Below, in pieces: positions 116-45,063 of a stretch of 64,000 bases of DNA (positions within the stretch are counted from its first letter, which is position 1; each line of letters starts with the position of its first letter). This stretch comes from Ophelia neglecta. Lineage: Eukaryota. The position numbers and the translations under genes are program-made. The stretch covers positions 102,238,001 through 102,302,000 of the forward strand of contig OZ260663.1 in the NCBI GenBank assembly GCA_965285935.1, given 5' to 3'. The notes beneath the pieces are model-generated. The model was not told the DNA's origin. It saw only the letters and a list, made by a program, of their open reading frames with translations, and did no database searches.

Positions 116-470
116 GTAAGGACCATACAACTTCGTATGGGTGTTTAGCTGAACTACCTCCTGTTAATTTAGCTGAATAACATTATGGTAACACTTCAAT
201 ATAACAAATATATAAAAAAGCTACCAGGCCGGGACAATTCGAGTCATTACTTTTGTCAGTGAAGTACCCAGTTAAAAATTCTTTAATCTATCAGCGCACT
301 ACACAACTTAATATAAATTTCCGCAATCCTCAAGCCTAAGCAGTGTTATATTATACTTCGGGTTTACTAGTGATGGGCGACAGCAACACTCGGTAGGAAA
401 CCTGCTCCAACTAGTTCTATCTAGATATTTTAAAAGACAGCTTACTCTAACTTACTTCTTTATTTTACAG

Positions 471-2633: not shown

Positions 2634-2983
2634 TGTGGGCGGGTAGATTCCCGCGCTTTCAAGTCCTAATAGACCGAACGCTAGTGTCCTACTAAAACTA
2701 CTTGATTGACCGCTAGGTGCCGCTCACCGCTACCTAGTCGGCACCTTTAAACCAAGTACAATCTCTTTCTCTACTGACCGGCTAAGAGCCAACATCGCTG
2801 GACAACTGCTCTGCCCAGTGGTGTACTATGTAGTACTGAATCCCGTAACAAACTGGATTCTACAACTCTTCTAATCGTTGTCCGCTTGATCATGTATTCG
2901 CATAACCATCGCCATATTAAACATTAAAACCCACGAAAGGAAATTGTCTTCATTCCCAGTAATGAGCAACCAAATCCCCTACA
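2634..2983 (+). repeat. Complete 350-bp LTR (U3-R-U5), + orientation
   Basis: TG...CA termini, TTTAAA box near 2746, two ATTAAA signals near 2915-2928, followed by TAA and a PBS-like sequence. Confidence 0.93.
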
Positions 2984-2986
2984 TAA

Positions 2987-3008
2987 TGGCGCCCGATGTG
3001 GGGCTCGA
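2987..3008 (+). other. 22-nt sequence complementary to the 3' end of tRNA-Lys(CUU)
   Basis: TGGCGCCCGATGTGGGGCTCGA versus the canonical Lys(CUU) complement TGGCGCCCAACGTGGGGCTCGA (20/22). The element's own PBS shares only the first 12 nt. Confidence 0.85.
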
Positions 3009-3304
3009 TTTTAATGTTTAATATGGCGATGGTTATGCGAATACATGATCAAGCGGACAACGATTAGAAGAGTTGTAGAATCCAGTTTGTTACGGGATTC
3101 AGTACTACACAGTACACCACTGGGCAGAGCTGTTGTCCAGCGATGTTGGCTCTTAGCCGGTCAGTAGAGAAAGAGATTGTACTTGGTTTAAAGGTGCCGA
3201 CTAGGTAGCGGTGAGCGGCACCTAGCGGTCAATCAAGTAGTTTTAGTAGGACACTAGCGTTCGGTCTATTAGGACTTGAAAGCGCGGGAATCTACCCGCC
3301 CACA
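3009..3304 (-). repeat. 3' LTR in - orientation (U3-R, lacking the last ~54 bp)
   Basis: Reverse complement of 2634-2929 with 2 mismatches seen; preceded on the - strand by the PPT. Confidence 0.93.
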
Positions 3305-3315
3305 TACTCCCCTGG
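3305..3315 (-). promoter_or_regulatory. Polypurine tract of the Gypsy element
   Basis: - strand CCAGGGGAGTA immediately before the LTR start TGTGGG. Confidence 0.75.
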
Positions 3316-3620
3316 TTAAAATATTTATGTCCTCATAAACTATATGAAGGTATAGCCAGCATTCATGAGGAAGTCTAACCTTAAGATTTTTTTTTTCCGA
3401 CATATATACATATAATGATGATACCAAGTTTAACAATTGTTTTAAAAACACACATTAATAATAAATCGAAAGTAAAGTGCACCCGGGTACGACAAAGGAT
3501 GGACATGATTAATCAATATCGTCAAACCATCATTTATAGTGTGTAGTATTTGAAATACACAGTGCACACATATAATGCAAGTAAGCTTGAAAAAAAAACT
3601 GTACAGATAATTGAGAGAAT

Positions 3621-6600
3621 TTACACGAAAATTTCTCTAACCACAGCCGAACATGGTAAATGATACGGGTTGCTGTGTTTTCCAAAATTCGCACGTGTTG
3701 ACCTTCGGGGTTGAAACAAGTGATTGTTCTCAGGAAATACATGGTCAACTGTTGGCGTTATAGGTTGAACAATTGGGGCTGCCATGTTATCCATGGCCTC
3801 AATAGCCTCAGTTTCATTTCGTGTCTGATTTGGGTCAGACATGAGAGCTCTTGGCTTTAAAGCCTCAAAAGTACTATGGGATTCATTTGGTGGCTTGCCT
3901 TTGGCTACAGTTATCAAATGTTCCGTGTTTGAGGGTTGTTCTGTCTCCGTTGAGATAACTTCCTTTGGGGGGGTGACCTGTAGAGCAAATTCAATTTCGC
4001 TATTACTATCGTGGTCACTTGCCTCAGAATAGACATCCAATTCTCTAGTACTGTCAATGTCCCTTTCATCAATTACAGGGGGTGTTTGTTGATGAGGCGG
4101 AACAGTAGATCGATCGGGGGTATCAGGAATAACATTGGGCATGGGGTTGTCTTGATACCATACTCTAGCATCTAAAATAGCTGACCTAGACACATTTTTG
4201 CCTTCGCCTTCTCCAGAGGCAGGTACAATGGTATACACATTATTACTTGGTTTGGCAACTACAATGAAAGGGGTTTCCAACCATGTATCCTGTATTTTAT
4301 TCCTACCTAAGGGTCTATTTCTAAGAAATTCACGAGCACCAATGGGGATGGGTTTATCGTCAACTCTGTGCTTGGTATTGTGGAGGTTTCTCCGTTGTTG
4401 GGCGTGTTTCTCAATTTCGTGAGACGCATGTTTATATGCTAATTGTAGGGTTTTCTGGTGATCACTGAGCCACTGGTCAACGTCCGCTACACCGTCCCGG
4501 CAATAAGTGGGACCAACACAACCCAGGGCAATGTCTATAGGAAGTATCGGGTCCCTACCAAACATAAGGAAATAAGGTGATAGGCCCGTTGATTTGTGTG
4601 GGGTGGCATTGTACGTATATGTCAGTTCTGGGAGCAAGGTAGGCCATTTACGTTTTTGCTCGACAGGAAGTGATTTCAACAGGTCATGCAAGGTCCTGTT
4701 GTACCTTTCTGTTTGCCCGTTGCCTTCCGGGTGGTATGGCGTAGTGCGGGTCTTTTTGATTCGATACAATTTACAGAGTTCTTGGATAATTTTACCCTCA
4801 AAACTTCGTCCTTGGTCCGAATGAAGACGGACGGGGACGCCGTATTGCTGGAACCATTCTTTGACCAATAGTTTCGCCACAGTGGTAGCTTTTTGGTCTT
4901 TGCATGGAATTGCTTTAGTAAGTTTGGTGAAAACGTCTGTTAAAATCAACACGTTTTCCAGGCCGTTGGACGCCTTATCGATCAAGGTAAAGTCCATGGC
5001 CAAAATCTCTAACGGTTTTGTAGCAATCAAGTTGGAAATGGTGGGTTTTGTGGGATTGGCTTTCGACACTAGACACCTTTGGCACAGTGTACAGTGTTTT
5101 TCCACATCCCTGTACATAGACACCCAAAAACAATGCTGCCTTATGAGTGAAAAAGTGCGTTCTACGCGTTGATGGCCTGCTTGGTCATGGCAGAGGTTTA
5201 ACATGTGGGCACGCAAAGCTCTGGGGATGACAAGCTGCCAAATATCATGACCATTTGACTGGATAAGTCTGTAAAGCAACTTGTTGCTCAGTTTGAGATT
5301 TTCCCATTTGCCACACAGACGCCTAACTTCCCAATTTTCTCTAGAGAGTTGACGACGTGTTGGCTTTTGTTTGTGAGCAAGAAGTGCTAAGACACGGGAG
5401 ATACAAGGGTCATTAATCTGAGAGTTTATTAATTCATCTTGGGAGTAATGACTTGCCCAGCTTAGGGGAGGGGTAGGAGTTTGCAAAGTAGCGCCCAACT
5501 TGATTGTTGAGATGGGGATACGGGTGGTGCCACTTACAGTGTCAATGAGCGAATTCACCCGGTCCGCTTGTATCTCTTTACACTCAAATCCTGGTACTCG
5601 ACCCAATGCATCAGCATTTGCGTTGGCCTTACCAGCTTTATATGATATGTCAAAGTTAAATTGGCCAAGTTGAGCAACCCAACGTGATTCCGTGGCTCCC
5701 AACTTGGCAGTTTTGAGGTACTTCAAGGGGTTATTGTCTGTAAAGACGGAGAAATGGGGACACCCAATGAGATAGTCCCTGAACTTGTCTGTTACAGCCC
5801 ACTTGAGAGCTAATAGCTCCAGTTTCATCGAGCTATAATTTCGGTCGTTTCTTTCCGCTGGTTTAAGTGAGCGGGAGGCGTAAGAAATAACGACTCTACC
5901 ATTATCCTGTTGCTGACTCAACACAGCACCCAGTCCAGAAAAACTTGCATCTGTCTCCACAATAAACGGCTTAGTAAAATCTGGGTAGCCGAGTACCGGG
6001 GAAGAACACAATTTGTCTTTCAAAGAGTCAAAGGCCGCTTGGCAATCACCTGACCATTTGCTCTGGAAGGTAGCGATTTCTGTGATGTTGCTAGTCTGTT
6101 TCCGCCTTTTTTTGGGTGGTGCTTTTCCTAGTAGGGAGTGCAAGGGATGAGAAATTTTGGCAAAACCTTTCACGAAGCGCCTGTAGAACCCGGCTAAACC
6201 GAAAAAACTTCTAAGTTGTTCTTCAGTCCTAGGTGATGGCCAATTTTTGATAACACTGATCTTTTCTGGATCTGGGGAGACACCTTGTTCGGAAACCACG
6301 TGACCTAAATAGTGAACTTCTTGCATAAAGAAACTACACTTCTTCAATTTAAGTTTTAAGTTGTGTTTTCTCAAAATTTCAAATACTACTCTCAGCCTCT
6401 TAAGGTGATCCTCAAAAGTAGCAGAATATACCAAAATGTCGTCCAGAAAAAAAATCAATGTCTCAAAGTTTTGCACATGAAAACAGGCCTCCATAAGCCG
6501 TGAGAATGTTGCCGGGCTATTGGCAAGACCAAATGGCATTCTCAAATATTCATAGAGATTACCCGTCCCAACACGAAATGCAGTTTTGTGGATGTCTTCC

Positions 6601-7961
6601 TCTGCCATGGGTACTTGGTAGTAACCTTGGCTCAAGTCCATCGAGGAGAAGTATTTTGACCCCTTCAATGCATCAAGAACTTCATCGACCCTTGGGAGAG
6701 GAAAGGCGTCCTTCACTGTTTTAGAATTTAACACCCTATAATCTACACATAAGCGGAGGGAGTTATCGTGATTACGAGCGATAACTATTGGTGCCGCGTA
6801 AGGACTACAGCTGGGTCGAATAATCTTTTGATTCACCAAGCCATCCAGATGCTCCTTTACCTCGGAAATCAAATGAGGAGGAATTTTTCTGTGAGGGATT
6901 TTGACTGGCTTGTCATCAACAAGATGAATTTTGTGAGTCACACTGTGAGTTTGAGAGAGTTGTTCACCCTCTTTGGAAAATACATCTTTGTACTCGCTAA
7001 GCAAGTTAATTGCCTCAGTTTTTTGGGCCAAGTCTAGAGAATTGTTGAATTTTACATCCCTCAACCAATCAGGGTATTCTGTTTCTGAAATAATTGTTGA
7101 GTTCACTTCAGAAAAAGTGTTTCTTTTTACCGACACTGCTATAGTCTCATCTTGAACTGTCACATCAACATAATCAGGGTTGGACAATTCAGCGTCAGTA
7201 TACAATGTGCCAAGTACCGAGCGTGCTGGTAACCAAATATCCTGTTCACTAAGGTTTATCACACTGACTCTAGCATTTTGTTTCTCAATACTTGTGAACG
7301 AATCTATAACAAGGATATTTCTTGGCAGACAAGCGTTATTCCCATTTGGCGCTTGTACTAAGCCTTGTATTTTCTTGTCTTTAGGAAAACATTTTGTCCG
7401 GCCATTGACAACTTTCATAGAGTTGGCAGGAATCATTACCGGTGTTGTCCCTACCCGCACCAAACTAGCTCTGTTCCTTGCAGGCAGAAACAATGATGCC
7501 AAGTTTCTCCATGTTGGAGGCAATAGTGACAAATTGGGACATTTACTGGTAATCTGGTTGAAGATATTGCAGCCTATGGTAACATTGACAAGCTGTTGAG
7601 GGCAACCTGTATCATCCTCAATAAAAAAAACCATATCAGAACAATTAACGCCGCCAATTGTGAGATTAAGTGTTGTAATACCCACATACGGAATGCTGAG
7701 ACCATTAGCAGCGGTGAGTTGGAATTTCGCCAAATCAGTATCAACGTGTTCATTCTCAAAATGTTGCTTAAAGTATGACAGTTTTATGAGGGAGACCTGA
7801 GCCCCAGTGTCAAGGAGACACTTACTTTCGATCCCTGCTAAGGTAGCAGTTTCAATTGGACAGTTTCCATATACCTTTCCATTGGTTTCAAGGCCAGAGT
7901 TATCTCCCTCCCATGGGTGGCCTGTGCTATGGGAGGAATCTAGTTTGGGGAGCCATTTGTA
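3621..7961 (-). CDS. pol: Gypsy Pol (PR-RT-RNase H-IN), expressed by -1 frameshift from gag
   Basis: The frame is open from 7961, upstream of the called ORF start, and includes protease LLDTGAQVS. RT LCVDYR, MPFGL and FLDD; RNase H ETDAS and TDNNPL; IN HHCC (CHDQAGH..CTLC) and core LHSDQG..GNGQTER. No stops. Confidence 0.96.
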   Translation of the reverse strand, partial: YKWLPKLDSSHSTGHPWEGDNSGLETNGKVYGNCPIETATLAGIESKCLLDTGAQVSLIKLSYFKQHFENEHVDTDLAKFQLTAANGLSIPYVGITTLNLTIGGVNCSDMVFFIEDDTGCPQQLVNVTIGCNIFNQITSKCPNLSLLPPTWRNLASLFLPARNRASLVRVGTTPVMIPANSMKVVNGRTKCFPKDKKIQGLVQAPNGNNACLPRNILVIDSFTSIEKQNARVSVINLSEQDIWLPARSVLGTLYTDAELSNPDYVDVTVQDETIAVSVKRNTFSEVNSTIISETEYPDWLRDVKFNNSLDLAQKTEAINLLSEYKDVFSKEGEQLSQTHSVTHKIHLVDDKPVKIPHRKIPPHLISEVKEHLDGLVNQKIIRPSCSPYAAPIVIARNHDNSLRLCVDYRVLNSKTVKDAFPLPRVDEVLDALKGSKYFSSMDLSQGYYQVPMAEEDIHKTAFRVGTGNLYEYLRMPFGLANSPATFSRLMEACFHVQNFETLIFFLDDILVYSATFEDHLKRLRVVFEILRKHNLKLKLKKCSFFMQEVHYLGHVVSEQGVSPDPEKISVIKNWPSPRTEEQLRSFFGLAGFYRRFVKGFAKISHPLHSLLGKAPPKKRRKQTSNITEIATFQSKWSGDCQAAFDSLKDKLCSSPVLGYPDFTKPFIVETDASFSGLGAVLSQQQDNGRVVISYASRSLKPAERNDRNYSSMKLELLALKWAVTDKFRDYLIGCPHFSVFTDNNPLKYLKTAKLGATESRWVAQLGQFNFDISYKAGKANANADALGRVPGFECKEIQADRVNSLIDTVSGTTRIPISTIKLGATLQTPTPPLSWASHYSQDELINSQINDPCISRVLALLAHKQKPTRRQLSRENWEVRRLCGKWENLKLSNKLLYRLIQSNGHDIWQLVIPRALRAHMLNLCHDQAGHQRVERTFSLIRQHCFWVSMYRDVEKHCTLCQRCLVSKANPTKPTISNLIATKPLEILAMDFTLIDKASNGLENVLILTDVFTKLTKAIPCKDQKATTVAKLLVKEWFQQYGVPVRLHSDQGRSFEGKIIQELCKLYRIKKTRTTPYHPEGNGQTERYNRTLHDLLKSLPVEQKRKWPTLLPELTYTYNATPHKSTGLSPYFLMFGRDPILPIDIALGCVGPTYCRDGVADVDQWLSDHQKTLQLAYKHASHEIEKHAQQRRNLHNTKHRVDDKPIPIGAREFLRNRPLGRNKIQDTWLETPFIVVAKPSNNVYTIVPASGEGEGKNVSRSAILDARVWYQDNPMPNVIPDTPDRSTVPPHQQTPPVIDERDIDSTRELDVYSEASDHDSNSEIEFALQVTPPKEVISTETEQPSNTEHLITVAKGKPPNESHSTFEALKPRALMSDPNQTRNETEAIEAMDNMAAPIVQPITPTVDHVFPENNHLFQPRRSTRANFGKHSNPYHLPCSAVVREIFV
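7891..7949 (-). promoter_or_regulatory. Programmed -1 ribosomal frameshift signal
   Basis: Slippery heptamer C CCA AAC (7949-7943) directly before the gag TAG; 6-nt spacer; stem CCTCCCAT/ATGGGAGG; loop AGGCCA can pair with downstream TGGCCT. Pol is in the -1 frame. Confidence 0.8.
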
Positions 7962-9196
7962 TCATTAGTGGACTTACTATGGTTTTTCTTGAAGTTTGGT
8001 TCATAGTTTTCCTTCTGGATTCCCCTCTCTGATGGGCAGTCGGGACTTTTGTGGCCCCTTCCCCCACAGTTATGACACACCCATTCCTTTGGGTTAATTG
8101 AAAATGATTTCTTCTTGGGTTTGGTACGGAACTCACTCTTTTGACTTGGTTGAGAAGGATGAGATTCAAAATTTCTCACTAGTTTCTCCATAAGTTGGGT
8201 CTGTGTAGCCAGCTGTTTCTGCTGTTCTTGAAGCAACTGGGCGAGTATAGGGTCAATATTACCGGACACAACAGAGGATTGAACAGATGAGGCTTTGGTT
8301 ACACTAGTGCAGGGTGGTCTATTACAATCAATAGTCCATTTGATAGCCCTATCCCTAAATTCAAAGAATGATAGAAGTGGAAGGTCTTCCTTGAGTTTGC
8401 GCAACTCTCTGCGTATGTGCTCATCTCGAACCCCTTCTGCAAACTTTTCCTTCAGTGCCTGATTCTTCTCAGAGTCAGAAATTTCATTCAATGAATTAAT
8501 TTTATTCATTATCTCCATCAGGGAAATACAATAGGTGTGAAAGGATTCATCTCTATTCTGGTTTCTAGTATAAAAACTGTTCCAAAGTGCCGAAACCGAA
8601 TAGCAATCTCCAAATACTTCCTTAATAACCTTAAGCATTTCAGAGTCAGAAGCAAATGAATCAAATCTGTATTTTATTTCTTGCTTGGCATTTCCTTTCA
8701 AATGCTCCAGAATGAAAGATTTCTTTTCACACATGGTCATGTTTTGGTTATCTAAGTAATACTTGATATCTTGCACCCAGTCAATGACATCAGGGTCATC
8801 ATTTTTGACTGGTCTACCTGGTAATTTGGGAAATTTCTTCTCCCTTGCTACAACAAATGTTCGGGGTAGAGATGCGTGTGAGGGAGGCGGGCTGGGGCCA
8901 ACTGCGTGACTAGTTCCAAGAGGGTTTGAACTAGGAACGTCAGGTGAAGTCGAGACAAATTGAGACTTCGGTTTAACATCCGGATCATTGTTCTGATATG
9001 ATGACAGGCCGATGGGCTTTCTGCCTGTCTCAACCACATGTCTATAATCCTTAAAGGAAGTAGACAATTGTAGAAATTTGTCCTGTAAGTTCAAAAATTC
9101 CTCCATGGAAACAGTTTTACCCTCAACAGGATTCATTTTCATTGGACCCAGGGCCGCCCCTCCCGCAGCATCGTCTCCACCCTCTTCGCTAGACAT
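7940..9196 (-). CDS. gag: Gypsy Gag (PNMA-like capsid plus CCHC zinc knuckle)
   Basis: About 418 aa from ATG 9196; capsid-like region KKFPKLPG..DWVQD..LKGNAK; zinc knuckle CHNCGGRGHKSPDC. Confidence 0.93.
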   Translation of the reverse strand: MSSEEGGDDAAGGAALGPMKMNPVEGKTVSMEEFLNLQDKFLQLSTSFKDYRHVVETGRKPIGLSSYQNNDPDVKPKSQFVSTSPDVPSSNPLGTSHAVGPSPPPSHASLPRTFVVAREKKFPKLPGRPVKNDDPDVIDWVQDIKYYLDNQNMTMCEKKSFILEHLKGNAKQEIKYRFDSFASDSEMLKVIKEVFGDCYSVSALWNSFYTRNQNRDESFHTYCISLMEIMNKINSLNEISDSEKNQALKEKFAEGVRDEHIRRELRKLKEDLPLLSFFEFRDRAIKWTIDCNRPPCTSVTKASSVQSSVVSGNIDPILAQLLQEQQKQLATQTQLMEKLVRNFESHPSQPSQKSEFRTKPKKKSFSINPKEWVCHNCGGRGHKSPDCPSERGIQKENYEPNFKKNHSKSTNDTNGSPN

Positions 9197-10219
9197 GGTG
9201 TACACATATGTATAGTCACCTCATGAAACCAGGATGAAATGTGATGAAAAGATGAGAACTCTGCAAGGGTCCCAACACCTACGTTGACATTCTCGAACGG
9301 TGGGTATTTTACTCTAGTAACCTACAATCGGAGGCCACCTGAGAACTGTTCAACGTGATCAAATTATTCCAGCCTAGAGTTCTAAGGGATCTTAATTATA
9401 CACATTCAATGATGAAATTGAATAGCTGGTGAGTTGATGAATGGAAATGAAATGGATGCGAGCAGGTGAGTACTCAATAATCAAACATGCATGGTAAATA
9501 TATAGCAGTCAAGCATGGCGACGTAATCCTACATATAAGTCAACATGCAAAATTTCAACAAGCAATCACATAAAGGTTCACATTAACAGTAAATTAAATG
9601 AAGTTCTCAATAATTAATCAACATGCAAACAGCGGGATGTGCAATCAACAAGGGAGCTTCAATGATAATTAGGTTTGCATGCAATCAGTTATTACAAGAC
9701 AGGCAAAAATGTTATTCAAATAGGCTTATTCCTTATTTACATTGAAATGCAAGTATTTGTACAGCACTAGGATTATAATTCAACACGATATACAATTATA
9801 AGATATGAACGCATGTGTGGACATCAGTTGAAGTCTTGAAAAAATGTCAATCTATGATTTATGACGACACCGGGGAACAAACAGCCCATATGAGTTCTCA
9901 ATATCTGAAATTGCAATGGCTCGCTGATGGCCGCTCTCCTTGGTGTACGAACATCGGTCGAAAAGTCTAGAACTAGTGCAGACTGAAGATTTATTACGAA
10001 GCCGGGGAACAAAGTTCTTACTCTTTGAACCTCAGTGGGCTCGCTGACGACCGCTCCCCGACGAAGGTAGCCCTCACGGTCCTTTGTACTGGGAGTTCTG
10101 TGGTCGGCGTAATGGTCAGTGGAGCCTAGCGTGATGTAATTCAGCCGTCGCCTTTGTATGAAGTTCAGATTGCCTTCTTAGGGTCACTATTCAGCACACA
10201 TATAACCATGCCAAAGCTG

Positions 10220-10231
10220 CATCGGGCGCCA
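10220..10231 (-). promoter_or_regulatory. Primer binding site (tRNA-Lys type)
   Basis: - strand TGGCGCCCGATG, 3 nt after the LTR end CCTACA. Confidence 0.88.
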
Positions 10232-10234
10232 TTA

Positions 10235-10417
10235 TGTAGGGGATTTGGTTGCTCATTACTGGGAATGAAGACAATTTCCTTTCGTGGGTTTTAATGTTTA
10301 ATATGGCGATGGTTATGCGAATACATGATCAAGCGGACAACGATTAGAAGAGTTGTAGAATCCAGTTTGTTACGGGATTCAGTACTACATAGTACACCAC
10401 TGGGCAGAGCTGTTGTC
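10235..10417 (-). repeat. Partial 5' LTR (R-U5 portion only, 183 bp), - orientation
   Basis: Reverse complement of 2801-2983; the U3-proximal half is absent. Confidence 0.92.
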
Positions 10418-10442
10418 GTAATGAGCAACCAAATCCCCTACA
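10418..10442 (+). repeat. 25-bp U5 terminus in + orientation forming the right integration end
   Basis: GTAATGAGCAACCAAATCCCCTACA is identical to 2959-2983 and is followed by the TSD TGGT. Confidence 0.9.
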
Positions 10443-10450
10443 TGGTGACA

Positions 10451-43765: not shown

Positions 43766-45063
43766 CACTTTTTGAATTGAAATTATTGCGATTATTTTTA
43801 CAGTTACATTTTGAACATTGAATTAGTCATATTATTCTTGTCACAATCTGCGTACTTTTCGTCCAGCCGATATGAGAGCCATGTTTAGTATACTATGCCA
43901 TTTGACTGTGACAACTTTATGTTCTTTAAAGTTCATAGGTCCCTCTTTGATCTTTTTATGAATTGCAAAATCCATGTTATCATGCTGAGATATATATGTC
44001 ATATTAATATGTTGAGGGCATTGTAAAATTAATTGAACACTCATGACTAGTAATTTCTATACATATGGTTATATAATATATTGAATTAAAGTCTGAATAT
44101 CGTACGCAATGCATTTCTTTGTTGTTATGTACGGGCTAGCAAATGTTCCAATTTTGAACCCTATAGCTAACAAACCGCAGCATAACAAGGGAACTGACGT
44201 GCAGCATCCAACATTATGGTGACATGTGATTATATAAGTTTAATATAGGTGAAAATGGGTAAGTACAAATGATACATGTAGGCAACCATTCCAACAACAG
44301 AACAACAAGGTCAACAAATTACGATACTGCATTACAAAGACTTACACAGATTGACATAAACATTGAGTTTACTTCCTGGCAAAAGGCTGAACTTGCGGGT
44401 TGCAATATCAGGGAAAGCGAGGCAAATTGAAAAGGTTTGCTGAAGGATTGAATATGAGATGATCGACGTCCAAATATCCTAGTGGAGGTCGGTAGTGACA
44501 GGCGTTGGCGTCGGGAAGCATCCGAGGGTACGTAGACGACCAACCGGGTGCCAAAGATGTGGTGGGCGACCGTTAATAAGCCGAGCGGCGTACAGTCACA
44601 CACTACCAGAAATAAAGTTATCTTCCTAACCTCAGGCCTGCAAGAGGGCAGACACTAAATCACACATCGAAAGTAAATGGATACCATACTTGCAAGATCA
44701 CATGGCCGTTATGGCAGATGACACAGTGGGGGCAATGGATGTAATGCCCCCAGACTACAGTCTCCTGGTAGTGTCCCACCGATTACATTATCTCCACCAC
44801 AGGAATCGCGAGCACTTTCTCCAACCGAGAATAACTCCACTATAGTGCAGGCTCCACATAGTGGAAACGACTTACAAGTTTGGGTTGAAAGCCTCGGTTC
44901 CACATAGTTGACCTTACACACTAATAAGATTTGCATGGCAATATTGCAGTGCGTAACATTGTTTACTGTTCTAAAACCACTCACGTGTTTATAAACGTTT
45001 CTAAGCACACCGATAGCTAACTCGTTTGTACAATGATTTCATTAATTTATTTCATCACACCTG

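Follow-up and report, generated by a model that had tools for sequence, protein, structure and literature searches.

Over-long copies of a tRNA-Lys primer behind an LTR in an inverted gypsy-type element and at other loci of the same genome

The biochemistry that underlies our findings is already known. In HIV, copying of the tRNA primer stops mainly before m1A58, and a second stop, 1 nt before m5Um54, is attributed to m5Um54 and not to pseudouridine 55 (PMC8599865). A review gives stops at 58, 55, 54 and 37 together with full read-through (PMC13191261), and the minor HIV-1 plus-strand strong-stop products include P3 and P4, which stop at pseudouridine 55 or m5Um54, and P1, in which the whole tRNA is copied (PMC13191261, PMC8599865). 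Products that extend beyond 54 are stated to be not integrable (PMC8599865, Fig. 6 legend). In Ty3, the first strong-stop DNA copies 12 nt of tRNA-iMet, is displaced when priming recurs at the polypurine tract (PPT) and builds up as a dead-end product (PMC5371799). In Drosophila Gypsy, an 11-nt primer-binding site (PBS) for tRNA-Lys2 lies directly behind the 5' LTR, and env is present (PMC1635307); the Helenus TRIMs have a tRNA-like part inside their LTRs that is not complementary to the PBS (PMC10886601). The inheritance of primer sequence in endogenous retroviruses is discussed in PMC7472051, the available part of which does not describe over-long copies. How the first plus strand ends and is transferred in gypsy elements with an 11-15-nt PBS is known mainly from yeast Ty1 and Ty3. 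Our literature search, whose range left most subscription and older papers outside it, found no publication that describes over-extended copies of the primer in gypsy elements of animals.

We analyzed a window of 64 kb, by which we mean the whole stretch of DNA under study. An inverted gypsy-type element lies at 2634-10442 of the window and is flanked by a 4-bp target-site duplication (TSD), TGGT. On the + strand, the order is LTR(+), TAA, the tRNA 22-mer, an inverted body and LTR 326-350(+); the body itself runs from LTR 296 back to LTR 1, then PPT, pol, gag and PBS, and then from LTR 350 back to LTR 168. Specifically, the left TSD copy (2630-2633, +) is followed by a full-length LTR of 350 bp with TG...CA ends (2634-2983, +; terminal sequence CCCCTACA at 2983), by a TAA spacer between LTR and PBS sequence like that of the native 5' junction (2984-2986, +) and by a 22-nt reverse copy of mature tRNA-Lys(CUU) positions 76-55, including CCA, as aligned to a mature-tRNA reference (2987-3008, +). 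Past junction J1 (3008/3009), the features lie on the minus strand: positions 1-296 only of the 3' LTR (3009-3304); the PPT (3305-3315), in the same context as in sister elements; a pol open frame of 1446 aa with protease motif DTGA, RT, RNase H and integrase (3621-7961); a PNMA-like gag open frame with a CCHC knuckle (7940-9220), which overlaps pol, with pol in the -1 frame; the native PBS (10220-10231), in which a 12-nt match is followed by CAGC; and positions 168-350 only of the 5' LTR (10235-10417). Past junction J2 (10417/10418), the terminal 25 nt of U5 (LTR 326-350; 10418-10442, +) are the source of the right CA end, and the right TSD copy follows (10443-10446, +).

Judged by its predicted protein order of protease, RT, RNase H and integrase, the element is a Ty3/gypsy LTR retrotransposon. 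Domain matches in pol are RVT_1 (397-555), RT_RNaseH (636-768), Integrase_H2C2 (912-968) and rve (981-1078), with the DTGA motif close to the N-terminus, and upstream of pol the gag frame matches PNMA and zf-CCHC; the TG...CA LTR ends, PBS, PPT and 4-bp TSD are those of the group. A slippery-type heptamer at 7943-7949 (minus), right before the gag stop, predicts a programmed frameshift into the -1 frame of pol. No env, as expected of a retrovirus or errantivirus, was found, the ~300 bp between the end of pol (3621) and the PPT holding no ORF of at least 100 aa. This is a difference from Drosophila Gypsy, which does have env (PMC1635307); the two are likened here by their features.

The body and the LTR(+) are 99.1% identical to a normally arranged sister (L109, both LTRs), the three larger LTR pieces differ from one another at two sites, and a base at LTR 87 is common to the left LTR and the 3' LTR and absent from the sisters compared. 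The shared LTR 87 base places the left and 3' LTRs in one lineage and, together with the identity to L109 and the near-identity of the LTR pieces, indicates that the insertion is young and of a single lineage. The ends of the element are confirmed by a paralogous empty site at 44217-44220 with a single TGGT. This site lies in the second copy of a tandem segmental duplication, 94-99% identical, which pairs window 12.5-26 kb with 46-59 kb and 0.8-2.6 kb with 42.4-44.2 kb. The element is a single rearranged copy with no sign of host function. A sister subfamily (L113, L111, L112, L114) has a 674-bp LTR, in which the same 350 bp are enlarged by internal repeats of ~325 bp behind position 223.

Since the 296-nt inverted arms stand only 79 nt apart, we considered a fold-back read at a near-palindrome, that is, an assembly artefact. 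J1 is known from the assembly, and read-derived contigs (3 runs, one sample) leave 3005-3051 uncovered, which is neutral either way. However, the two arms are not identical (2 sites differ), 10 bases specific to the tRNA could not have come from a fold-back, one TSD, in agreement with the empty paralogue, flanks the outer ends, and 15 similar junctions occur at other loci, most of them non-palindromic. An artefact is therefore most improbable.

The tail behind the + LTR matches tRNA-Lys(CUU) from position 76 to 55 with zero mismatches and ends before T54. An earlier note, made from the letters of this DNA, had pointed to the TAA and 22 nt behind the + LTR and to an own PBS that matches 12 nt before CAGC; both sequences are present as described. 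It had also held that the extra 10 nt were templated by the tRNA and that the primer was tRNA-Lys(CUU), and both views are borne out. The PBS 12-mer itself occurs 2 times in the 64-kb window against 0.09 expected. At the base frequencies of the window, the extra 10 nt would match a given continuation with a probability of ~4e-7, and the 19 nt that follow CCA have 64 exact matches in the element's own genome against 0 for a reversed control. Twenty of these 64 matches are joined to LTR-type ends and 44 are not; copies of the host gene for this tRNA were found. The arrangement is that of an over-extended plus-strand strong-stop DNA, in which U3-R-U5 is followed by the 3' end of the primer including CCA, here ending at position 55. 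We have little doubt that the 22-nt tail was produced by the element's reverse transcriptase. Within the 22 nt of the window, CCA is the one sign of a mature tRNA; ARAGORN called no tRNA within the window.

Could the 22 nt instead be the native PBS of a second, nested element, such as lenti- and spumaviruses have in their primer over-extension sequence? Complementarity that reaches position 55 does exist among retroviruses (PMC13191261), and two of the other events (L126, L130) are without a close sister, so that a long native PBS is possible there. Nevertheless, as the earlier note had suggested checking, the members of the family do not normally have a native 22-nt PBS: it is 12-13 nt in all close sisters read and 11-15 nt in other Lys-primed families. 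Of the two outcomes that the note had named as refuting it, a 22-nt PBS as the norm of the family and the lack of a host tRNA for the extra bases, neither was found. The native leader of the element matches the tRNA tail at 15/22 nt and the extra nt at 3/10, and no primer over-extension sequence was seen in the element's genome (15/22 here; 12-18/22 among 12 native leaders). In addition, the lineage-specific base common to the left LTR and the inverted body, and the presence of one TSD for the entire structure with no inner TSD or intact inner ends, speak against a nested element, which we regard as barely credible. Membership in the Helenus TRIMs was also rejected. Those are likewise LTR elements with tRNA sequence, and in animals they have 4-bp TSDs and are primed by Lys and other tRNAs (PMC10886601), but the tRNA copy found here stands behind a single LTR and not within it, prolongs the PBS and is that of the element's own primer.

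The earlier note had also suggested a search for further junctions of an LTR with extended tRNA, and 15 similar ones were found beyond the window. Among 42 exact genome matches to CCA plus 11 nt (14 nt in all), the copies end at 14 nt (6), 15 nt (14), 16 nt (1), 20 nt (1), 21 nt (1), 22 nt (11), 23 nt (2), 44 nt (1) and 66-76 nt (5), and none ends at 17-19 nt; the 14-15-nt ends (20/42) are native PBSs. Seven of the 22-nt matches have equal flanks and the TSD TCAG and were counted once, as a single duplicated insertion; a replicating subfamily with a long PBS was rejected for these seven identical junctions because of the common flanks and TSD. This insertion (L115-L121) has a 22-nt tail and a second, partial re-copy of the tRNA, and at 2 of its 3 duplicated loci it has expanded into LTR-sharing triples. 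Two older copies, L137 (a spliced-junction match) and L180, were added to the census. Three of the 13 matches of one search (L182, L185, L188) were dropped as apparent chance matches, a number that agrees with the 3 matches of the control.

After the collapse, 18 independent Lys events remain: 9 at 20-23 nt, 8 at 44 nt or more and one ambiguous 16-mer (L135). The 20-23-nt events (window, L118, L122, L126, L127, L130, L132, L133 and L136) end at tRNA positions 57-54, the ends at 20, 21 and 23 nt being partly blurred by microhomology. Together with seven events of 44-76 nt (L123, L124, L125, L128, L131, L134 and L180), they make up the 16 LTR-adjacent events of at least 20 nt; L137 is a 57-nt copy without a recognizable LTR. 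Three of the 18 events (L126, L130, L137) have no close sister that displays the native PBS. Under a uniform model with a rough correction, 9 of 18 events in a single 4-nt bin has p ~1e-5. LTR-end/PBS junctions that have a 2-nt spacer were counted in a separate census: of 70, 52 have a short match and 18 at least 20 nt of tRNA; without duplicates of one insertion, 12/64 have at least 20 nt. This census relies on exact matches and favors young copies, leaves duplicates in the short class uncollapsed and misses the family of the window, which has a 3-nt spacer.

Since no copy ends at 17-19 nt, 22 nt may be the usual end in this system. It could also be that 18-nt products are made yet never mis-integrated. 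The earlier note had presented the tail as copied past the normal stop. A read-through of A58 to 22 nt is likely, but 18 nt is the stop of retroviruses and is not established for gypsy elements; no end at 17-19 nt was found here, and Ty3 copies 12 nt (PMC5371799). As the cause of the stop, modified U54 is more likely than pseudouridine 55, which the note had named for read-through in retroviruses (PMC8599865). By analogy with HIV, it seems rather likely that a modified U54 causes the stop. The window copy resembles the HIV-1 products P3 and P4 in that a copy of a tRNA-Lys primer passes A58 and ends at 55, matching the second stop, and the second class here, which copies most or all of the tRNA, resembles P1. 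Three differences from HIV-1 are to be noted. Its over-extended products are minor and were seen in vitro and in cells, whereas those here are integrated, with clean TSDs, via aberrant jumps; lentiviral genomes match the tRNA to position 55, whereas the gypsy element here does not; and no 18-nt class is recorded among the copies here. The likeness to Ty1 and Ty3 lies in the short PBS and in a tRNA copied beyond the PBS, and perhaps in most copies keeping the native PBS rather than the tRNA sequence. Unlike in Ty3, where 12 nt of tRNA-iMet are copied, 20-23 or 44-76 nt of tRNA-Lys are copied here, and the product that is a dead end in the yeast elements (PMC5371799) is recovered here in integrated copies.

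The long copies bear on the nature of the template. Of the 44 matches not joined to LTR-type ends, 14 were read, and 14/14 are copies of the tRNA-Lys(CUU) gene with a ~26-nt intron, one of them rearranged. The tRNA copies that reach across the anticodon loop, by contrast, are intronless and CCA-ended, and the spliced anticodon junction has 7 matches in the genome, all in CCA-type copies and 6 of them at LTR ends. Because the long copies are spliced and CCA-ended while the host genes examined carry an intron, the template was the mature tRNA, not the gene; CCA is present in all the over-extended copies. The host genes (L010, L011, L017 and L020-L030; mainly G000:C9:6.83-6.92 Mb) have the ~26-nt intron after position 37 and are clustered with tRNA-Gln and tRNA-Ser genes. 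ARAGORN without its intron option misses these intron-bearing Lys genes, and relaxed settings give mostly noise. Two integrated elements contain a full 76-nt intronless, CCA-ended tRNA-Lys(CUU) (L124, G000:C1:37465396-37465471; L125, G000:C2:95278918-95278993), and ARAGORN calls both as tRNA genes. At tRNA position 58, no copy has a mismatch; such faithful copying of A58, read from genomic copies, is suggestive of a primer without m1A58. A G10-to-A change occurs in 2/5 long Lys copies that cover position 10 (L123, L124). One host Lys gene has A10, but its 3' end is unlike both copies. As for G10-to-A being a footprint of a modification, the changes are too few, and coincidence is quite possible.

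The over-long copies landed in various ways. In L122, L136 and probably L130, the tail lies in or near register and the rest of the element is normal; L122 and L136 have 21-23-nt tails, in or one base off register, and LTRs that are 100% identical. A forward jump cost L118, L123, L124, L128 and L132 the leader, gag or part of pol, and a jump back into the LTR left U5 and PBS duplicated in L125, L134 and L135. Two elements are inverted with a tRNA tail, namely the window element and L133 (22-nt tail); L131, L180 and L127 consist of an LTR and tail alone; and L126 and L137 are unplaced. An exact 4-bp TSD is found in 10 events (window, L118, L122, L124, L125, L131, L132, L133, L134 and L180), that of L136 matches at 3 of 4 positions, and L123 has none. 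At L131 (G000:C12:59.776 Mb) and L180 (G000:C2:58.892 Mb), a solo LTR is followed by ~69 nt of tRNA and a short borrowed LTR end, with exact TSDs; by their structure, both are apparently strong-stop DNA integrated by itself. Deletions by strand-transfer errors, in which strong-stop DNA is transferred aberrantly, were reportedly described in retroviral vectors by Pulsinelli and Temin in 1991. The loss of leader or gag through wrongly landed strong-stop DNA (L118, L123, L124, L128, L132) recalls those deletions; the copies here, however, are natural, inherited gypsy copies and include inversions and solo LTR-tRNA insertions.

Did the tail cause the inversion? The earlier note had suggested that the tail, together with the 12-nt PBS, may have done so, which amounts to saying that 18 nt is the normal stop and that the extra 4 nt blocked second-strand transfer. 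With 3/10 of the extra nt matching the native leader, the 3' end would indeed be unpaired; most over-long events mislanded (L118, L123, L124, L125, L128, L131-L134), and L133 is a second inversion with a 22-nt tail. On a 12-nt PBS, however, an 18-nt copy, like any copy of more than 12 nt, is equally unpaired, 0/42 matches end at 17-19 nt, and L122 and L136 were transferred in register. Moreover, a sister at G000:C7:109710687-109724658 (L111 and L112) is inverted without a tail. The unpaired state of any copy longer than the PBS, the in-register tails and the tail-less inversion together mean that a tail-caused inversion is not needed, and we hold this explanation to be doubtful. Probably the tRNA tail is carried along as a passenger and favors mis-landing, without being a necessary cause of the inversion. 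The C7 sister has an inverted body and two U3 ends; its + LTR is joined to the antisense PPT via 6 nt of microhomology, its near-TSD reads TCTA/TCTG, and its leader contains a 5.7-kb insertion.

We propose a mechanism for the window element that we consider probable as a whole: the reverse transcriptase copied the mature tRNA-Lys(CUU) primer past A58, the displaced strong-stop DNA primed a sense template, and the product was integrated. Directly observed are a tail that matches the tRNA, a native PBS that is short, similar copies in several families, long copies that are spliced and bear CCA, and, at the borders of the element, two integrase-type ends with a 4-bp TSD. In this scheme, the reverse transcriptase would copy the primer through A58 and halt before modified U54. 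The LTR, TAA and 22 nt would represent the first plus-strand strong-stop DNA, presumably displaced, and its unpaired 3' end would land near the 3' end of a sense template, probably a second genomic RNA. Extension of the landed DNA as a false minus strand would yield an inverted body that reaches from LTR 296 to LTR 168. Finally, a jump to a 25-nt minus-strand piece of U5 would restore the CA end, which would make the product insertable by integrase.

The antisense run after the tail (LTR 296 ... LTR 168) calls for a sense template whose two ends are U3-R and R-U5. The LTR contains a TATA-like TTTAAA at 113 and ATTAAA at 283 and 290, and these motifs predict an RNA from ~LTR 140 to ~300-320. 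Since the predicted RNA includes both breakpoints (LTR 168 and 296), which are close to its ends, a second genomic RNA is favored as the template, although it speaks against this that the inverted body ends ~28 nt short of the predicted RNA start. We lean toward this RNA-template path.

The main rival accepts the same origin of the 22 nt but supposes that, before integration, the end-joining of the cell linked pieces of cDNA, namely a strong-stop duplex, a full-length cDNA that had broken and a U5 end. J1, directly past the two ATTAAA hexamers, is blunt and without microhomology, and J2 has only imperfect microhomology, which fits end-joining equally well; the presence of LTR 168-296 three times means that more than one molecule or strand contributed. 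Yet both body breakpoints fall within the short predicted R region and not anywhere in 7.4 kb, and other events (L124, L133, L136 and the C7 sister) show, as is typical of jumps by reverse transcriptase, partial pairing or microhomology of 1-6 nt, so that we find end-joining unlikely. An inversion by autointegration was rejected, as host DNA with a TSD borders the element on either side and the inner joints are not LTR ends.

What this locus contributes beyond the known biochemistry is a test of template maturity by means of the intron, a 22-nt peak without an 18-nt class, the contrast between Lys and Asp primers, and the mirror-image product. The inherited copies give end points for an animal directly: a peak at 20-23 nt, a tail that reaches the tRNA's 5' end and none at 18. 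Over-extended products can thereby be seen to integrate, to lengthen the PBS in register and to deposit processed tRNA copies. Tentatively, and with the balance somewhat against it, we suggest that the m1A58 stop may be inoperative in these animal gypsy elements. The first plus strand would then routinely end at a Lys-specific U54 mark or run through the whole primer, ~1 in 5 young Lys-primed junctions would record this, and the displaced product would prime a second RNA, as a mirror-image reverse transcription, or integrate alone. If so, the genome would be a readable log of primer-tRNA modification and would gain intronless, CCA-ended tRNA copies joined to U5. Such U5-joined copies are reportedly the intermediate once proposed for the origin of tRNA-Lys SINEs; Ohshima et al. 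in 1993 are said to have proposed a retroviral route to tRNA-derived SINEs with a strong-stop intermediate. Two debated questions can be tested from genomes: whether A58 methylation is a general stop for LTR elements, and which base makes the second stop, pseudouridine 55, present in nearly all tRNAs, or modified U54, which predicts a Lys-specific peak.

Such a peak is hinted at by the Asp-primed copies, of which 5/5 run 65-75 nt and none stops near 22. Among events of at least 21 nt, 8/16 Lys copies end at 21-23 nt against 0/5 Asp copies (Fisher p 0.063; the fifth Asp copy comes from a search biased to long copies), so that the Lys-versus-Asp contrast in end position is a hint. In the Asp copies (L198-L202), LTR-type ends are followed by 65-75 nt of CCA-ended tRNA-Asp(GUC), and 2/5 stop right before A9. 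A tandem array of at least 34 tRNA-Asp(GUC) genes with ~580-bp spacing lies at G000:C8:20.000-20.026 Mb. Of additional note, two further LTR-type ends (L181, L187) carry ~25-30 nt of another tRNA, which we take to be tRNA-Leu.
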